Part shown: one piece after another, positions 2,706 through 28,679 of the stretch
Position numbering within the stretch: the stretch's first letter is position 1
How the letters are laid out: each line of letters opens with the position of its first letter
Source: a virus
Taxonomy: Duplodnaviria > Heunggongvirae > Uroviricota > Caudoviricetes
DNA length: 64,000 bases
IMG/VR virus record: IMGVR_UViG_2541047873_000001
Reading direction: 5' to 3' (one strand)
Translations under genes and position numbers: made by a program
The notes under the pieces: model-generated
The model's database searches: none
Seen by the model: the letters and a program-made list of their open reading frames with translations, nothing else
Told to the model about the DNA's origin: nothing

Positions 2706-3151
2706 TGGGTGACTTTGGAAATTATTTCATTTTTATCATGGCATTTGTTGCCGTTATTGACCGTTTCTTATTTCGTCGCAAGAGTGTTGATATTTTGAGC
2801 ATTGGCGAAGCTGTAGTGAAAGAGTCTGCTATAGCGTTTCCCGTGTCGCTTCGCGTTAAGCGAAGCTGGGTAAGCAATGCACAAATCGAATATTGGTTGC
2901 AGGACTTGAAAAATCCATCTGTGGTTATTTCGGGGAAAACAAGACCAGTTGACGCATCAAAACGCGGTGAGAGAGAAGAATATTTGCTCATCGACACGAA
3001 ATATCTTGAGCCAGCGAAGTGGGATCTAAAGGTCACATTGACTAACGGTAATTGCCGCCTGAATCCGCTTTATCGCATTTTCCCTATCAATGACTGCATA
3101 GAACGTCAGTTTATGATTGAAAAGTGTGAAGGAGACTGGAATGTCAAATAA
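2705..3151 (+). CDS. N-terminally membrane-anchored protein (P1 LydB-like by size and position)
   Basis: 148 aa; ATG overlaps the upstream stop (translational coupling); N-terminal hydrophobic helix. Confidence 0.4.
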   Translation: MGDFGNYFIFIMAFVAVIDRFLFRRKSVDILSIGEAVVKESAIAFPVSLRVKRSWVSNAQIEYWLQDLKNPSVVISGKTRPVDASKRGEREEYLLIDTKYLEPAKWDLKVTLTNGNCRLNPLYRIFPINDCIERQFMIEKCEGDWNVK

Positions 3152-3758
3152 ATCTAATTATGTTCTTCTTAATTATGATGAGTTAAACGAAAAGGGGCTG
3201 GCAAAACTCGTCAAAGAAATCGGTAAAGGAGGCTACAAGATAGCGAGGGTGATCCCCGCCAGTAATGGCAGGAAGAAAGACGGGATCATGACGCGCACGT
3301 TTACCCTTATCGGAATCGATGAGCAGACGATGGACGTTCAGGTTAATGATACTGGTGATATTTCTGGTGTAAAACTGAACGGAAAAATTGTTCCTTTCAA
3401 GCCAGTTAAAACGCTGATGGCTTTAGGGCAATCACTGGCTGCTTTATTTAATAAAGGCGCATCATCATTTCAGAAATCATTGGCGCGTAAGTTAGCTCGT
3501 GCGGCGAAAGATATTGATGATGGGAATAAGAAAATAAAAGGCGTTAAGTCCAATGCGCAGAAACTAGCAGAGGCAAAGGAATCTCGCGATGCGATCCGCG
3601 AGGATATTGAAAGGGCCAAAGAAAAATTAAATCAGGTGCAAGGTAATTCAGACCGCGCAACAAGAGAAACTGAAATCATTAGAACCGAGATGGCGCAGGA
3701 ACTGGCGAAAACTCGCGTATTGAAAGAAGAAATAGCGCGCCTGGAGGAAGATGCATGA
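3141..3758 (+). CDS. Coiled-coil protein, Hdf-like (homolog of DarA fragment)
   Basis: Start ATG at 3141 with an AGGAG RBS (the ORF-track start at 3117 is less likely); charged coiled-coil C-terminus resembles the central part of the next ORF. Confidence 0.4.
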   Translation: MSNKSNYVLLNYDELNEKGLAKLVKEIGKGGYKIARVIPASNGRKKDGIMTRTFTLIGIDEQTMDVQVNDTGDISGVKLNGKIVPFKPVKTLMALGQSLAALFNKGASSFQKSLARKLARAAKDIDDGNKKIKGVKSNAQKLAEAKESRDAIREDIERAKEKLNQVQGNSDRATRETEIIRTEMAQELAKTRVLKEEIARLEEDA

Positions 3759-5680
3759 TAAAGAAACCTATTCGAATAAATATCCAGTCCACTTTTGCAG
3801 ATACGCTCACTGGATATACGCCTAATCGTTGGGTGGCGGAAGATATCACCGAGGATGATTTACTTATCGAGCCTGCGACGCTGGAAGATATCGAGCTGGC
3901 CTATATGGGCAACGAAATTTTGGTAACTACCAATGAGGCAATGTTCGAAGCTTTAACCACAACAAAATTGCGGTTAGCGCAAACAATGCGAGCATTTGTC
4001 CGGGCGCTTAATCGCGGCCTGAATGGCACTGACATTGCTGCGGGTACGGATGAGGCAGGTGAATATGAAGACGGACGTAATAGTATCGGTGGGGCAATCA
4101 TTGGGCGCGTGCGCCGGGTTGCTAATATCCCTGTTGTAACAGCACAAATACCTCTAACCGATGGACAAACGACAAGCATAATTTTCCATTCTCCAACCGC
4201 AGACGGCACAAGAATTAAAGGGGATGACGAGCTGGTTGCGTTTCAGTTTCTTCTTAACAAAAGAAACGTTACGCATGTTGTTGCGCCAATCGGTGGGCGT
4301 GATGTATCTCTGAGCCAGGTGTGTCAGGCGCTTTCTAACCTCATTGAGCGTAACAGTGCAAAATTCAAAAAAGCAAAGGAGCGCCAGGACAAAATGAAGG
4401 CTGATATTGAGGGGTATCTCAATGAAGCCGACAAGCTGGCAGAAGAACGTTCTGTGCTGATTGAGCAGGTTGAAGACGCACAGCGGGGGCTGGCAGAGAA
4501 ACGCTCAACACTCAATGATATGCAGAATAAATTAGACGCACAAAAAGCCCTTAACGCGGAATTGCAGGCTAAGCGCGATAATTTATTGTCAGCTAAGAGC
4601 CAAGGAACTAAAGAGCGTGCCTTCAATGATCAACTGCGACACATAAAACATAATCTTGCTACAGAAGGCCAAACAACGCTGGATAATGGTGCTGTAGTTA
4701 AGTATGTCACGTCAGGCAGTGATAGCTTTGTCACGATTGAGGCACCAGAAGGCAATTTCAGTATTGATGTCAGTGCTGTTAAAGGTGGGAGTTCAGCGGA
4801 CGCTGCAACCAAATTACTTAAAGCCTATCGTGAACATAATGCTGATCAATACAAAGTGGATGTGTTGCCGGGCCAGCCTGAGCCAACTGATCAGCCGCAG
4901 CCTGAACAGGAGCCACAACCAGCATCACATCCTGATCCCCTGGAGGTTGGTAAATATCGCTATGCGCTACAATCTCGCCCGGCGGGTGTTGGTGCGGTTC
5001 CTGAAGGAAATAAAGCTGTACTTGACCGTCCTGATCAGGCTGATCCGTATTACGAATATGCTCGTCACGGAATCATTACGTATGACCGCAAACTGACAGA
5101 CGAAGAAGTCAGTCAGTACGAATTACGCTATCTGCCTGATGACGATGAACTGAGAGGGATGGCGAACGAGCTGGTTGCGTCCAGCATGGTAAAACATATT
5201 GATGGCTATGTAGATCTGTTTGGAAGTGACCTGAAAACATTCAAGGCGCAAGTTAAAATTCTTTTCCGCAAAGCGTTCCCGAACGTGGCATATCCACTTG
5301 GTGATGGGGAGAACCTTTTCATTATGGACGTGTATAACGCCCTTCAAAATCATTCAAGCGAAGTAAAAACAGATCCTGTAGTTGAGCCAGAATCGCAACC
5401 TGCACCAGCACCAGAACAGGAGCCGGAGCCAGAAGAAGCGGGTGAATCAGCAAGCGAAGCTGACCAGGAAGCAGATAAAGCGCTTGAGTACCTGAAATCC
5501 GTTCCGGAGCAGTTCACATCCCGCGATCTGACGGTCATAAGTGCTGAACTTGATCATGTGCAGGAAGCTGCAAACGCTCTTATCAGTGCTGGTCGATATG
5601 ACGAGAACGAAGCAACTGTAGGTGCAGCCGTTGACTACCTGATCAATATTCTGGCTGAAATTCAGCAGGGAGGTGCTTAA
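3755..5680 (+). CDS. darA: DarA-like internal head / antirestriction protein
   Basis: 641 aa, close to the ~639 aa I recall for P1 DarA; coiled-coil centre and PE/PQ-rich linkers; sits in a lydAB-hdf-darA-ddrA-ddrB-like order. Assignment is positional plus size, not motif-based. Confidence 0.5.
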   Translation: MIKKPIRINIQSTFADTLTGYTPNRWVAEDITEDDLLIEPATLEDIELAYMGNEILVTTNEAMFEALTTTKLRLAQTMRAFVRALNRGLNGTDIAAGTDEAGEYEDGRNSIGGAIIGRVRRVANIPVVTAQIPLTDGQTTSIIFHSPTADGTRIKGDDELVAFQFLLNKRNVTHVVAPIGGRDVSLSQVCQALSNLIERNSAKFKKAKERQDKMKADIEGYLNEADKLAEERSVLIEQVEDAQRGLAEKRSTLNDMQNKLDAQKALNAELQAKRDNLLSAKSQGTKERAFNDQLRHIKHNLATEGQTTLDNGAVVKYVTSGSDSFVTIEAPEGNFSIDVSAVKGGSSADAATKLLKAYREHNADQYKVDVLPGQPEPTDQPQPEQEPQPASHPDPLEVGKYRYALQSRPAGVGAVPEGNKAVLDRPDQADPYYEYARHGIITYDRKLTDEEVSQYELRYLPDDDELRGMANELVASSMVKHIDGYVDLFGSDLKTFKAQVKILFRKAFPNVAYPLGDGENLFIMDVYNALQNHSSEVKTDPVVEPESQPAPAPEQEPEPEEAGESASEADQEADKALEYLKSVPEQFTSRDLTVISAELDHVQEAANALISAGRYDENEATVGAAVDYLINILAEIQQGGA

Positions 5681-14284: not shown

Positions 14285-14520
14285 TTATATTCATGCCGTC
14301 GTAGCAAATTCTGCGACCAGGTTTGACAGCCTGAATACTTACGCGGACAACCGCACATTTCCGATATTGCGGTATTTTTGTGTCCGTAAAACCACGTTAC
14401 GCCCGAATTATGGTGGGGCGTGATGGGGAGGCTTCGGCCTGCTGGTTTCGTAAGTGCCAGTCTGTCAACCCTGTCACGTCCTGCCACCTGTTTGACAGCG
14501 GGTCGCAGGTTGTTTATCAA
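14285..14520 (+). ncRNA. Candidate C4-like antisense RNA or immI leader (approximate bounds)
   Basis: ORF-free leader before icd with a UUCG-loop hairpin (gaggcttcggcctg) and repeated ttgacag / ctgtcaa complementary elements, resembling the P1 c4-icd-ant layout. Confidence 0.3.
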
Positions 14521-26415: not shown

Positions 26416-26532
26416 TTGATTATGTAGTTAACTTAACATAGAATTTTTCGTGCTGGTGGGGAGCTTCCCATGTCGCTTGCGGGTTTGATAGTCACTTCAT
26501 TGTCTTTCCCCACCAGCATCAAACAATTTTAA

Positions 26533-26546: not shown

Positions 26547-27726
26547 ATTTTAAGGTAAGGGAAAGCTCCGGCACCGTGCAAATACATGCCCGGCAGGTTT
26601 AGTGCGTAAAGTGGTTTCAGCGAGAGCATTTTACGGAGTAAACGACAGTGACTTGAGCCACGGAAGGTCTTTTTATGGTGTTCATTGATGATGATCTGGC
26701 AGTGAGTATGTTAAGTGGGCCAGGCTGCATCGGGTCATCATCAGTGCACATCCTCAACGTTAAGGAGGCGCAGAGTTGGGTTTTCCTCTTATTTTGCTGA
26801 CTCTGAGTCTCCTTAACGTTGCGGTAATGCACCTATGCGGATGTGGCCTTGCATTGTGTCTTGAAAGAATGGGGTAAGGCCGGGGATATTCCCAGGGGGA
26901 GGCACCCCCGCTGCAACGAACAGCCATAGACGGCAGTCGAGTGATGAAAACGTGAAAAGACTTTAAACCTCGTTACGGCTGGCGTGGCAAACGCGACAAC
27001 CGGGATAGGACGGTGACGGGCGGAGAGAGAGCCGCTTCAAGATAAAAGCCGACTATGGATTCCTTTCTGCGGGCCTTTGAAAGTGAATCTTGCTCAGGCA
27101 GTCGGCTTTTATGTTGATACGTAGCGATAACCGCGACAGGCGCGGCGGTAAGTATGGCGGGGTTATTCCTTCCCCGTTGAGGACACCGAGTTGCCAGGTT
27201 GACCATACGCCTAAGTGGCAATACCGCGAGTGGGATATTTGCCCACCTTCGGGTGGGTGTTTTTTCAGTGTTTTCGTCATGGTTAGCGACTTTGCGGCGG
27301 TTTAGAACCCGACCATTAAAGTAAATGCAAACGATGATCTGATGATGGTAGCGGCCTAAGAAGCCTGACGCCACGGGGTATGAGTCGTCCCCCGTCAAAA
27401 AATCGACCGCAGAGTGTCCCCGTCTGTGTATTAGGGAACGGGGAGGCATAACAGGCAAGGGCGCTGGTGTGATTAACCAGATGAATGAGAAGGGTCAGGT
27501 CTTTCTGGTCAGCGCCCTTACCTGTTACGTCCCTCCCGCGTAACAGCCATTGGTTAATGGCTTTCTGGGATAATGTCTTGTAACGGGTATATCCCGTCAT
27601 GCTGAAGGCGCTAATCACGCTGGAAGCCAGGGTTATGCATCCCCTGTTACCGAATTGCAGCCAGGGCGCGGTGCGCCGAAAAGCATACGGAGGTGGAAGC
27701 CCTCGCCGGAGACGTACCCGGCAAGT

Positions 27727-27803
27727 GATGGTGTAGCTCAGTAGGATAGAGCAGCAGCCTTCTAAGCTGTCGGTCGGTGGTTCGAATCCACCCACCATCG
27801 CCA
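27727..27803 (+). tRNA. tRNA-Arg (anticodon UCU)
   Basis: Hand-folded cloverleaf: acceptor gatggtg/caccatc, D arm gctc/gagc, anticodon loop cuUCUaa, T loop ggtgg-ttcgaat-ccacc, encoded CCA. Confidence 0.8.
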
Positions 27804-27808
27804 ATTTA

Positions 27809-27895
27809 GGGGAGTTAGTCCGTAGGGGTAGCGGGGTAGACTGTAAATCTACTGTCATTGCGACTCGGATGGTTCGACTCCATCACTCCCCACCA
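27809..27895 (+). tRNA. tRNA-Tyr (anticodon GUA), long variable arm
   Basis: Acceptor ggggagt/actcccc, anticodon arm gtaga-cuGUAaa-tctac, long variable arm, T arm gatgg-ttcgact-ccatc, CCA; resembles E. coli tRNA-Tyr. Confidence 0.7.
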
Positions 27896-27975: not shown

Positions 27976-27983
27976 ACACAACA

Positions 27984-28056
27984 GGTAAGGGTATTTTGCG
28001 ACGTCGGAGATCGCCGAGCTTGGCAGAGGGTTCGAATCCCTACGAAGTACCCTTAC
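27984..28056 (+). other. tRNA-like element or pseudo-tRNA (T arm plus 10-bp terminal stem; no anticodon arm, no CCA)
   Basis: ggtaagggta...tacccttacc terminal helix encloses a gggttcgaatccc T-arm-like hairpin; too short for a complete tRNA. Confidence 0.25.
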
Positions 28057-28163
28057 CGTTGTGATGAATGCACAGGCTGATGTGCCGCAACTACAGTAGT
28101 GCGCGCTTTGCGGGGCTTGCTACAACCCTGTGTCGGAGTTCAGCACCGACCATCACAATCACT

Positions 28164-28250: not shown

Positions 28251-28679
28251 GCGCAACGTTAAGAGTATTTGGCTAATTAAGCGAATGCCGGAAGCAGAAC
28301 CGGATCACCAAATGCGTACAGGCGTCATCGCCGCCCAGTCAGCCAAATGCTCTTACCATTGCGGTGAATGCGGCTAAGCGCACGCGGAACAGTTAAAACA
28401 GTAAAGGTGGTCTTTTTACTGGCGTAACGAGAATCCATAAGTGATCCGGCGTTAATTGTTAACTGGTTAACGTCACCGGGAGGCACCCGGCACCGCAACC
28501 TAACAGCAATGGCGTTTTGTCTTAAAAGGTGGCTGCAAGTGATGGATTTTTGGGCGTTTGCCGATAAAAACCCGGAGTGGACATTATTGTTTCTGCTGGT
28601 GGTTGCATACGGGGTAGAGCAAGCGGCAAAAGCCTTACGCGGTTCTGGCAAAAAGCGTAAGCGTAATTAACAGTAATCT

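Follow-up and report, generated by a model that had tools for sequence, protein, structure and literature searches.

A headless tmRNA-like tag module with a 5′ arm complementary to host tmRNA in phages and phage-plasmids of Enterobacterales

Trans-translation is the main bacterial ribosome-rescue and protein-quality pathway. In a 64,000-nt stretch of Caudoviricetes DNA (IMG/VR record IMGVR_UViG_2541047873_000001; "the window" below means this whole stretch), we followed up a 10-codon frame at positions 27327–27359 that resembles the tag frame of transfer-messenger RNA (tmRNA). The frame lies in a compact, structured, non-protein-coding RNA module of ~180 nt (~27268–27444, plus strand), which belongs to a large undescribed family in phages and phage-plasmids of Enterobacterales. 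The tag-like frame is real, and chance is excluded as its origin. The module is "headless": since the defining tRNA-like domain is missing, it is not a tmRNA of any known form. Its 5′ arm is, judged by base complementarity, a conserved complement of the host tmRNA template, and we consider it possible, at somewhat short of an even chance, that the phage RNA docks on host tmRNA, masks the host tag and supplies a replacement tag.

Distribution of the tag module

The window is a D6/P1-like phage-plasmid: the 467 bases round the frame are 100% identical to E. coli plasmid NZ_CP104667.1, and a 2-kb stretch round it is ~90% identical to phages D6, P1 and P7. A sequence-only reading of this DNA had reported the codons GCA AAC GAT GAT CTG ATG ATG GTA GCG GCC TAA (ANDDLMMVAA-stop) at 27327–27359, preceded by AAAGTAAAT at 27318–27326, and both are there to the letter. 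That reading expected a coincidence to reveal itself by absence of the motif from related elements; the 10-codon frame and its stop are kept in hundreds of unrelated phages.

An IMG/VR search with the 17-mer AAAGTAAATGCAAACGA gave 125 matches that we examined. A minority were long coding open reading frames (ORFs), and the remainder were either genuine permuted tmRNAs (ARAGORN "tmRNA*"), of which loci L012 and L015 score 120–122 bits in Rfam, or copies of the tag module; the resume-codon context is therefore a true tmRNA signature. SSU5-like Klebsiella phage-plasmids, which are otherwise unlike P1 in this region, carry the module with the tags ANDDVVLMAA and ANDNVVLMAA, and >120 further viral contigs matched another pattern, one derived from the 3′ part of the module. 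BLAST finds the module in 753 GenBank phage records, in 618 plasmids and, among 5426 complete E. coli genomes, in 652 (~12%; 150 chromosomal and 550 plasmid copies). Its carriers are both temperate (P1/P7/D6-like and SSU5-like phage-plasmids, lambdoid prophages) and virulent (Felixounavirus, Kolesnikvirus, Ackermannviridae, Chaseviridae, Schitoviridae, Drexlerviridae; at least six families) and include such textbook phages as P1, P7, D6 and the Felix O1-like and Vi1-like phages. The module is thus kept across unrelated phage families whose flanks cannot be aligned, at a site without annotation in nearly all carrier records, and full-text literature searches, which included the peptide string, found no published description of it.

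In lambdoid prophages, the module stands between the Q antiterminator gene and the holin gene (L326, E. coli E2865 chromosome, 3145–4218; also L205, L218 and L297). It lies there a few bases downstream of a TTGACA-17-TAGATT promoter, at the place of the lambda PR′ leader/6S RNA, a position suggesting that it may be constitutive in lysogens and strongly expressed late in infection. A TnpB (IS200/IS605-type) element interrupts the module exactly within its 5′ arm in Klebsiella plasmid pSCKLB684-mcr (L003, 286–1500) and in L028; these copies keep only ...AAACUGACCAUU and the tag, have a deletion within the pseudoknot region as well, and are thus natural arm-less variants.

Coding signal of the tag frame

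We located the tags independently of the stop codon and recovered 39 distinct nucleotide versions. Every version is exactly 10 codons long with a stop as the 11th triplet (TAA in 35, TAG in 2, TGA in 2), and variation is concentrated at third positions (mean entropy 0.68/0.53/1.11 by codon position). Codon 1 is GCA or GCT, codon 2 AAC or AAT (AAA once), codon 3 GAT, GAC or GAA, and codon 10 GCC, GCT, GCG or GCA (CCC once); bar that CCC, these four codons change at the third position alone. Like tmRNA tags, the encoded peptides (ANDDLMMVAA, ANDDVVLMAA, ANEEMYLAVA, ANDEQFLAVA, ANDNVFLAVA, ANDSEMRVAA and relatives) have retained an acidic AND/ANE motif at the N-terminus and a hydrophobic ending in (A/V)-A.

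The frame has neither a Shine-Dalgarno sequence nor an in-frame AUG; it runs internally from a GCN resume codon to the hydrophobic-(A/V)-A end and stop. Selection at the codon level would imply decoding by a resume-type mechanism. A small ORF overlapping the resume codon (AUG-CAA-ACG...) was considered as another coding possibility and rejected, its length and sequence being unconserved and its out-of-frame AUG missing in phage Marshall.

Anatomy and structure of the module

Alignment A1 comprises 73 representatives that are <94% identical to one another, and in it the module opens with a nearly invariant (UA)GUUUUCG and closes with a terminal hairpin ~85 nt past the stop. It has three parts: a 5′ arm of 30–50 nt; a tmRNA-type mRNA-like domain, composed of an A-rich linker with UA at −5/−4, a GCA resume codon, a 10-codon AN(D/E)x...(A/V)A tag and a stop in a hairpin loop; and a pseudoknot with a terminal hairpin. 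The features in the window are as follows.

27268–27315, plus strand: 5′ arm GUGUUUUCGUCAUGGUUAGCGACUUUGCGGCGGUUUAGAACCCGACCA, collinear with the reverse complement of E. coli ssrA nt 57–107
27316–27326, plus strand: single-stranded linker and resume context UUAAAGUAAAU, nearly invariant in A1
27327–27359, plus strand: tag frame GCA...GCC (ANDDLMMVAA) and TAA stop, assigned from the sequence and the coding signature of the family
27345–27374, plus strand: hairpin that takes in the final codons of the tag, its loop carrying the stop codon, analogue of tmRNA helix 5
27373–27407, plus strand: H-type pseudoknot, with S1 pairing ACGGGG (27373–27378) to CCCCGT (27390–27395) and S2 pairing the loop GTCG (27384–27387) to CGAC (27404–27407)
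27417–27444, plus strand: terminal hairpin hp2, TCCCCGT/ACGGGGA, with the conserved loop CUGUGUAUUAGGGA in the window and GUGUGAUUAAUAAU in most relatives
27440–27536, plus strand: long hairpin with 27-bp arms and the base (A)ACAGGCAAGGG...CCCTTACCTGTT, an inverted repeat that marks the 3′ boundary of the module

The U at −5 and A at −4 of the linker, read as UAAAU-GCA in the window, match U85/A86 of E. coli tmRNA, so that the A-rich upstream determinant, like the stop codon in a helix-5-type hairpin, has its counterpart here; the AAAGUAAAU-GCAAACGA context is also present in bona fide permuted tmRNAs. Beyond the 3′ boundary, a CACAACAGGTAAGRG motif follows the module in most relatives.

We tested an explicit structure of 22 pairs, consisting of a two-part stop-codon hairpin, a 5-bp stem with a loop-tetranucleotide pseudoknot and the terminal hairpin, on the 73 representatives. 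Standard pairs form in 90.4% of cells and 16 of the 22 pairs show compensatory changes; doubly changed cells number 188, against 68 ± 10 in shuffles, none of 500 of which reached 188, and a control with slid partners was only 25–50% paired. The two helices of the stop-codon hairpin are 97.5% and 75.9% paired, with compensatory changes, and hp2 (helix 5 of the tested structure) is 83.9% paired, with double changes at 3 pairs. In the pseudoknot, S1 is 97.3% and S2 99.7% paired, and all four S2 pairs covary (GUCG:CGAC in the P1 type, CCGA:UCGG, CCAG:CUGG and CCAA:UUGG). The flanking hairpins that the sequence-only reading thought could be pseudoknots thus do include one, of H type and just 3′ of the stop. 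No counterpart of tmRNA pseudoknot 1 (PK1) was found in the module, whose upstream part is the antisense arm; the downstream covarying pseudoknot is the one present.

Several other structural proposals were set aside. RNAalifold on a MAFFT alignment gave a poor consensus, owing to the pseudoknot and alignment shifts, and was replaced by the explicit test. A long-range helix closing the module, formed by 5′ ACUUUGCGG with 3′ CCGCAGAGU, is good in P1; elsewhere only 3–4 invariant pairs remain, and L086, L030 and L041 have uncompensated breaks in it. The likeness of GUUUUCGAC to the D-loop analogue of tmRNA, GGUUUCGAC, covers only 6–7 nt, whereas the antisense match is longer and collinear over 30–50 nt. 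A kissing contact between the hp2 loop and UUAAUCA of ssrA is a 7-nt match seen by inspection only; it is lost in P1-type loops and is compatible with chance.

Absence of a tRNA-like domain

The sequence-only reading could find no tRNA-like pairing of 5′ and 3′ ends and no T-arm for this region, a failure that ARAGORN and Rfam bear out. ARAGORN, with detection of tmRNAs and permuted tmRNAs, called five tRNAs and no tmRNA in the window, and no tmRNA in 221 loci of the family. Scanned for T-arms over its whole length, the window showed those of the five tRNAs and, apart from them, a single unrelated orphan at 28026. None of the Rfam tmRNA models matched the window at its gathering threshold: RF00023 had no match at E ≤ 10 in 27000–27750, and the sole relevant match was to RF04321 (tmRNA_permuted), at 24.1 bits under permissive thresholds against a gathering score of 47. 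That score stems solely from UAAAUGCAAACGAU and GUAGC.GCCUAA, with the 119 model positions that hold the tRNA-like domain deleted, and the module in L004, L005, L046 and L067 scores 39, 33.3, 24.9 and 23.7 bits (gathering score 47; true members, 120–122). Such finders key on the tRNA-like domain and therefore miss this large tmRNA-related family.

The GGGG acceptor 5′ strand and the upstream acceptor piece of a permuted tmRNA are likewise not found in the module. Upstream of it stands, depending on the locus, a terminator, a promoter or an unrelated hairpin, not an acceptor piece. Four lineages have a sigma-70-like promoter directly upstream of the module.

SSU5-like phage-plasmids: TTTACT-17-TAAGAT, 6 nt before GUUUUCG
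Lambdoid prophages: TTGACA-17-TAGATT, ~14 nt before the conserved 5′ motif
Felix O1-like phages: TTGACA-17-TATAGT, 4 nt before UUAGUUUUCG
Kolesnikvirus: TTGACA-17-TAATCT, 5 nt before the conserved 5′ motif

The predicted RNA start in these own-promoter lineages is 0–6 nt ahead of the conserved 5′ motif. Since an acceptor 5′ strand with its spacer needs ~15 nt, it cannot fit there. Homology between Salmonella and E. coli Felixounavirus also starts exactly at UAGUUUUCG. We considered whether the upstream "dicF-like" hairpins (CGGGG-9 nt-CCCCG followed by ACC, and the terminator stem) could be the remnant of an acceptor, and rejected this on account of the 9-nt loop, of a spacing that is not the same in P1 as in the window, and of the promoter that the SSU5-like and lambdoid copies have at that place.

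What the sequence-only reading offered, a divergent, fragmentary or two-piece tmRNA-like gene or else a coincidence, is thus upheld for the tmRNA-like features; coincidence and every known form of tmRNA gene fall away. A two-piece gene was the nearest of its guesses, the antisense 5′ part having gone unseen.

Complementarity of the 5′ arm to host tmRNA

Our host reference was E. coli ssrA (L316), in which the resume codon begins at G90. Same-sense likeness between the module and ssrA is limited to the resume region and the end of the tag, while the reverse complement of ssrA is collinear with the arm. The segment concerned, ssrA 57–107, holds the 3′ side of PK1, the A-rich upstream determinant, the GCA resume codon and tag codons 2–6. 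Piece by piece, (UA)GUUUUCGUC of the arm would pair with GACGAAAAC(UA) in host codons 3–6, GUUnGCGAC with GUCGCAAAC at host positions −3 to +6, UUUGCGG with CCGCAAA, UUUUUA with UAAAAA, and CUGACC with GGUUGG in PK1. For the window, RNAduplex predicts 39 bp (1 G-U) between 27268–27314 and ssrA 57–107, at −48.4 kcal/mol.

This extended, position-specific complementarity is conserved, in silico, across the family. The median Smith-Waterman score of the 73 representatives was 28 against the reverse complement of ssrA, compared with 14 for the forward, 13 for the reversed and 15 for shuffled sequence; 55 of them beat all 300 shuffles, and every alignment fell within ssrA 68–106. Fourteen arm architectures from >8 phage groups all target ssrA 56/79–107/108, at −24 to −49 kcal/mol, whereas pairing of the arms with their own mRNA-like domain reaches merely −12 to −23 kcal/mol. 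Long arms, the common type, pass over host AAAUA and invade PK1, while short arms (Felix O1-type/EC6, Mangalitsa, L220, L255) pair with host AAAAUAGUCGC, which the long arm skips; complementarity is thus kept by different means. The arm segments GCGAC and GUUUUCGUC match host GUC-GCA and GAC-GAA-AAC, not the phage's own UAAAU-GCA or codons, and this fit to host-specific bases indicates that the arm is directed at the host.

Docking on host tmRNA and its alternatives

Because the 5′ part of the module is antisense to host tmRNA, the piece that the module lacks may be the host's own tmRNA. The arrangement that we favour, with confidence rather below one half, is a two-piece tmRNA spanning two genomes, in which the headless phage template is hybridised to host tmRNA, the charged host tmRNA-SmpB complex serves as the acceptor piece and rescue continues with the phage tag. 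In such a scheme, the arm would dock on the accessible single-stranded host template (nt 87–107) and zip toward PK1, masking the resume codon of the host together with the opening codons of its tag; long-arm versions would extend into PK1. The duplex would tether the phage RNA to the alanine-charged host tmRNA-SmpB complex. The linker between the arm duplex and the resume codon is 12 nt in long arms and 15–17 nt in short arms, and host UAGUC-GCA lies 11 nt from PK1; the phage linker would thus present UAAAU-GCA about as far from PK1 as the host presents its own resume codon. Rescue by alanyl-tmRNA-SmpB would then take its normal course, except that translation would restart on the phage template and add the phage-specified tag in place of ANDENYALAA, host tmRNA acting as the "acceptor piece" of a cross-genome two-piece tmRNA. 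Phage tags end in L-x-(A/V)-A, not L-A-A, and one might speculate that this ending changes the proteolytic fate of tagged proteins. In the window, the module would be transcribed as part of the RNA island in which it lies, from a promoter-like site at 26416–26444. Template and acceptor are separate RNAs held by pairing alone in natural two-piece tmRNAs (PMC11915505).

Several observations weigh against docking and tag replacement. RNAduplex z-scores are modest (−0.1 to −5), since U/A-rich shuffles pair well too, and the type-B arms L207 and L255 do no better than shuffles in that program. Cofolding the whole molecules gains just −4.9 kcal/mol over separate folds, the cost of opening PK1 being ignored. 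Covariation between arm and host was not found, the ssrA target being almost invariant among enterobacteria. ACC-type ssrA (ANDETYALAA; AAC versus ACC), which we take to be the Salmonella form, is found in viral contigs and has one base that mismatches the Felixounavirus arm; Felixounavirus arms are identical in Salmonella and E. coli phages despite this mismatch. The Mangalitsa arm predicted a host tag ANDSENY, which was found in no tmRNA; since the host of this phage is E. coli, the extra arm bases form a bulge. A BLAST search of the arm against the 5426 E. coli genomes returned only copies of the module and not ssrA, the segmented complementarity being too weak for a 28-Gb search. A strong terminator directly precedes the module in this window, where expression therefore requires read-through or processing. 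Finally, production of the module, its binding to tmRNA and its translation are all predictions, and loading of a ribosome onto a template held to tmRNA solely by a PK1-disrupting duplex is a hypothetical step.

The main rival of docking and tag exchange is pure antisense inhibition, which we rate as unlikely while giving it real weight: the arm would block the host template or trigger RNase III cleavage, and the tag part would be an undecoded structural or stabilising mimic. Complementarity of the arm to ssrA 57–107, resume codon included, is as expected for such a role; antisense oligonucleotides aimed specifically at one variant of tmRNA do away with >95% of the trans-translation that it carries out in vitro (PMC7038980), and the coding-sequence (CDS)-less tmRNA of mycobacteriophage DS6A is reported to inhibit host tmRNA (PMC11915505), so that inhibition of trans-translation by a phage RNA has precedent. 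Left unexplained are the invariable 10 codons followed by one of three stops, the variation at third positions and the kept canonical resume context.

It is improbable, at about one chance in ten, that the module is the coding piece of a genuine two-piece tmRNA of the phage itself, with an acceptor elsewhere on the phage, such as the uncalled T-arm module at 27983–28060. Permuted tmRNA is the best likeness in Rfam, and orphan T-arm modules adjoin the tag module in 89 of the 153 full-flank loci (those of 73 are of the GAGGGTTCGAATCCCTA type), directly so in L204, L207 and L217. As obligatory partners, these T-arm modules had to be rejected: neither a tRNA nor a T-arm lies within −700/+1200 in 40 of the 153 loci, and neither occurs in 8 kb in L046 and L127. 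By inspection, moreover, the orphan modules have self-contained stems and no G3:U70, the tag module has no acceptor 5′ strand with which to pair an acceptor piece, and the host-directed antisense arm would go unexplained.

A molecular decoy seems more doubtful still. A template mimic sequestering a tmRNA-directed factor (for instance a nuclease or toxin, S1 or RNase R), with neighbouring phage tRNAs perhaps replacing cleaved host tRNAs, would fit the position of the module in tRNA-rich RNA islands and its resemblance to the mRNA-like domain, helix 5 and a pseudoknot of tmRNA; a mimic should look like the host, yet the −5 to −1 context and the codons differ from the host's, and neither the antisense arm nor the codon-level selection would be accounted for. 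Very improbable indeed is a non-functional tmRNA relic, a chance frame or part of a protein gene in the style of P1 plp/upl: although P1 annotates opposite-strand CDSs further along the island and minus-strand ORFs exist at the site (26973–27458 and 27316–27858), sequence, structure and frame are kept across unrelated families with unalignable flanks, the element is unannotated in nearly all records, and ORF 27316–27858 crosses two tRNA genes. What probability remains is divided among an acceptor piece hidden in the phage, a role as decoy and other functions.

We know of no virus that reprograms trans-translation. If docking of the phage RNA on host tmRNA is true, phages block or rewrite the host ribosome-rescue tag and change the fate of rescued proteins; this would be a virus-host RNA interaction of a new class, would offer a natural test of resume-codon choice by the ribosome with the template in trans, and would suggest a route to programmable tagging or inhibition of trans-translation. 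Even read minimally, as a conserved antisense RNA of phages against tmRNA, the module would be new.

Other elements of the RNA island

The frame lies inside an "RNA island" without convincing protein genes, whose P1 counterpart is, by the P1 annotation, the leader of the C1-controlled ban operon. In the window, the island runs from a promoter-like site through several long hairpins, a "dicF-like" small RNA (sRNA) with its terminator and the tag module to the tRNAs.

26416–26444: promoter-like site, start of the RNA island
27240–27266, plus strand: intrinsic terminator GCCCACC-TTCG-GGTGGGT with T-run, which ends the upstream "dicF-like" sRNA (terminator scan, sequence and P1 annotation)
From 27727 onward: five tRNA genes (ARAGORN)

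The terminator marks the 5′ boundary of the module, which begins ~2–4 nt past the T-run. The sRNA-like unit that it ends (~27120–27266, with a UUCG-tetraloop terminator) corresponds to the "dicF-like region" annotated at the homologous place in P1. Rfam DicF did not match this unit; its internal hairpin covaries (CTGGG/CCCAG in P1 versus CGGGG/CCCCG in the window).

Long imperfect hairpins punctuate the island (26446–26523, 26672–26757, 26739–26837, 27037–27117, 27440–27536, 27978–28066 and ~28258–28365), several of them sharing a conserved base (CA)CAACAGGTAAGRG...CYCTTACCGTTGTG with variable inserts. They separate the RNA modules of the island, and in many unrelated phages they also border the tag module and tRNAs; L030 has lost the tRNAs between two of these hairpins, which recombined. 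These hairpins may be RNase III-type processing sites or cassette boundaries.

The tRNA-like module at 27983–28060 (T-arm GAGGGTTCGAATCCCTA at 28026; P1 counterpart L001 ~3290–3360), which ARAGORN does not call, has a long acceptor-like stem, an extra hairpin (GGCGACGUCGGAGAUCGCC in relatives) and a canonical T-arm, and lacks CCA and G3:U70; its type recurs 73 times near tag modules in other phages. Other tRNA-like elements occur in relatives. Klebsiella plasmid NZ_CP027864.1 (L004, 1754–1905) carries a 150-nt insertion, missing from L005, with tmRNA-like ends GGGUGAU...GCGGGUUCGAUUCCCGC-GUCACUC-UCCCA and a 7-bp acceptor pairing; RF00023 matches its T-arm at 17 bits, and it has no tag frame, so it may be a template-less tRNA-like RNA. 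L004 (2309–2392) and L005 (2160–2245) also share a tRNA-like gene with a perfect acceptor stem, CCA, an enlarged anticodon loop and a compensatory acceptor change (GCAAACA/TGTTTGC versus GCGAACA/TGTTCGC); ARAGORN makes no call there, and calls a tRNA-Phe(GAA) in L063 at an apparently corresponding position (unaligned).

Between tRNA-Ser and tRNA-Met(CAT), a sub-threshold Rfam match to STnc100 (28360–28497; 40.8 bits, gathering score 47) may represent a further sRNA module of the island. The minus-strand ORFs 27316–27858 and 26973–27458 cross the tag module, hairpins and tRNA genes. At the P1 plp/upl locus (L001, 3244–3813), plp overlaps tRNA-Thr and the two CDSs together cover hairpin modules; annotations of this type are probably spurious. 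Elsewhere in the window are two C4 antisense-RNA loci (C4 with its a1/b1 target, 14285–14491; isrK with C4, 52104–52314), which suggest two immunity regions of the c4/ant type on one phage-plasmid.

Comparison with known systems

With two-piece or permuted tmRNA (RF04321/RF01850), the module shares the AAAGUAAAU-GCA-AAC-GAU resume context, a short alanine-terminated tag, a stop in a hairpin, downstream hairpins or a pseudoknot, and a template RNA separate from the 3′ acceptor strand. Unlike two-piece tmRNA, it has no 5′ acceptor strand, P2 strands or upstream acceptor piece with T-arm and CCA, its 5′ end is antisense to another tmRNA, and it scores 24 bits where the gathering score is 47. With standard ssrA (RF00023), it has in common the first codons GCA AAC GAY, U at −5 and A at −4, a 10-codon tag and a layout with a helix-5-like hairpin and a PK2-like pseudoknot; unlike standard ssrA, it lacks the tRNA-like domain, PK1, PK3/PK4 and P2, and its strongest relation to ssrA is antisense, same-sense likeness being confined to the resume region and tag end. 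We know of no other tmRNA-type template without its tRNA-like domain.

Phage RNAs that pair with an abundant host small RNA have reportedly been described by Tree et al. in 2014, namely the anti-sRNAs AgvB and AsxR of prophages in enterohaemorrhagic E. coli (EHEC). Like these, the module is a phage RNA that would act by pairing, and its place in lambdoid prophages, between Q and the lysis genes, is in the same late-leader region. To our knowledge, AgvB and AsxR are simple sponges for Hfq-dependent sRNAs, none with a translatable tmRNA-type template or a tmRNA target.

Mycobacteriophage DS6A offers a different parallel, a phage-borne partial tmRNA thought to interfere with host trans-translation. 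Its CDS-less tmRNA consists of the tRNA-like domain only (PMC11915505) and has no tag; the module is its mirror image, a tag template without the tRNA-like domain and with an antisense arm. Synthetic anti-tmRNA oligonucleotides likewise pair variant-specifically and block trans-translation (PMC7038980), but they are artificial, short and without a replacement template, unlike the module. Among the forms in the tmRNA database paper (standard, permuted, intron-containing, CDS-less), none is template-only (PMC11915505), and on this ground, together with the lack of any description in our literature searches, we rate the architecture as new, both in how its parts are combined and in the parasitism of host tmRNA that it would imply. 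Its parts are familiar: the module resembles partly the coding piece of a two-piece tmRNA and partly a phage anti-sRNA.

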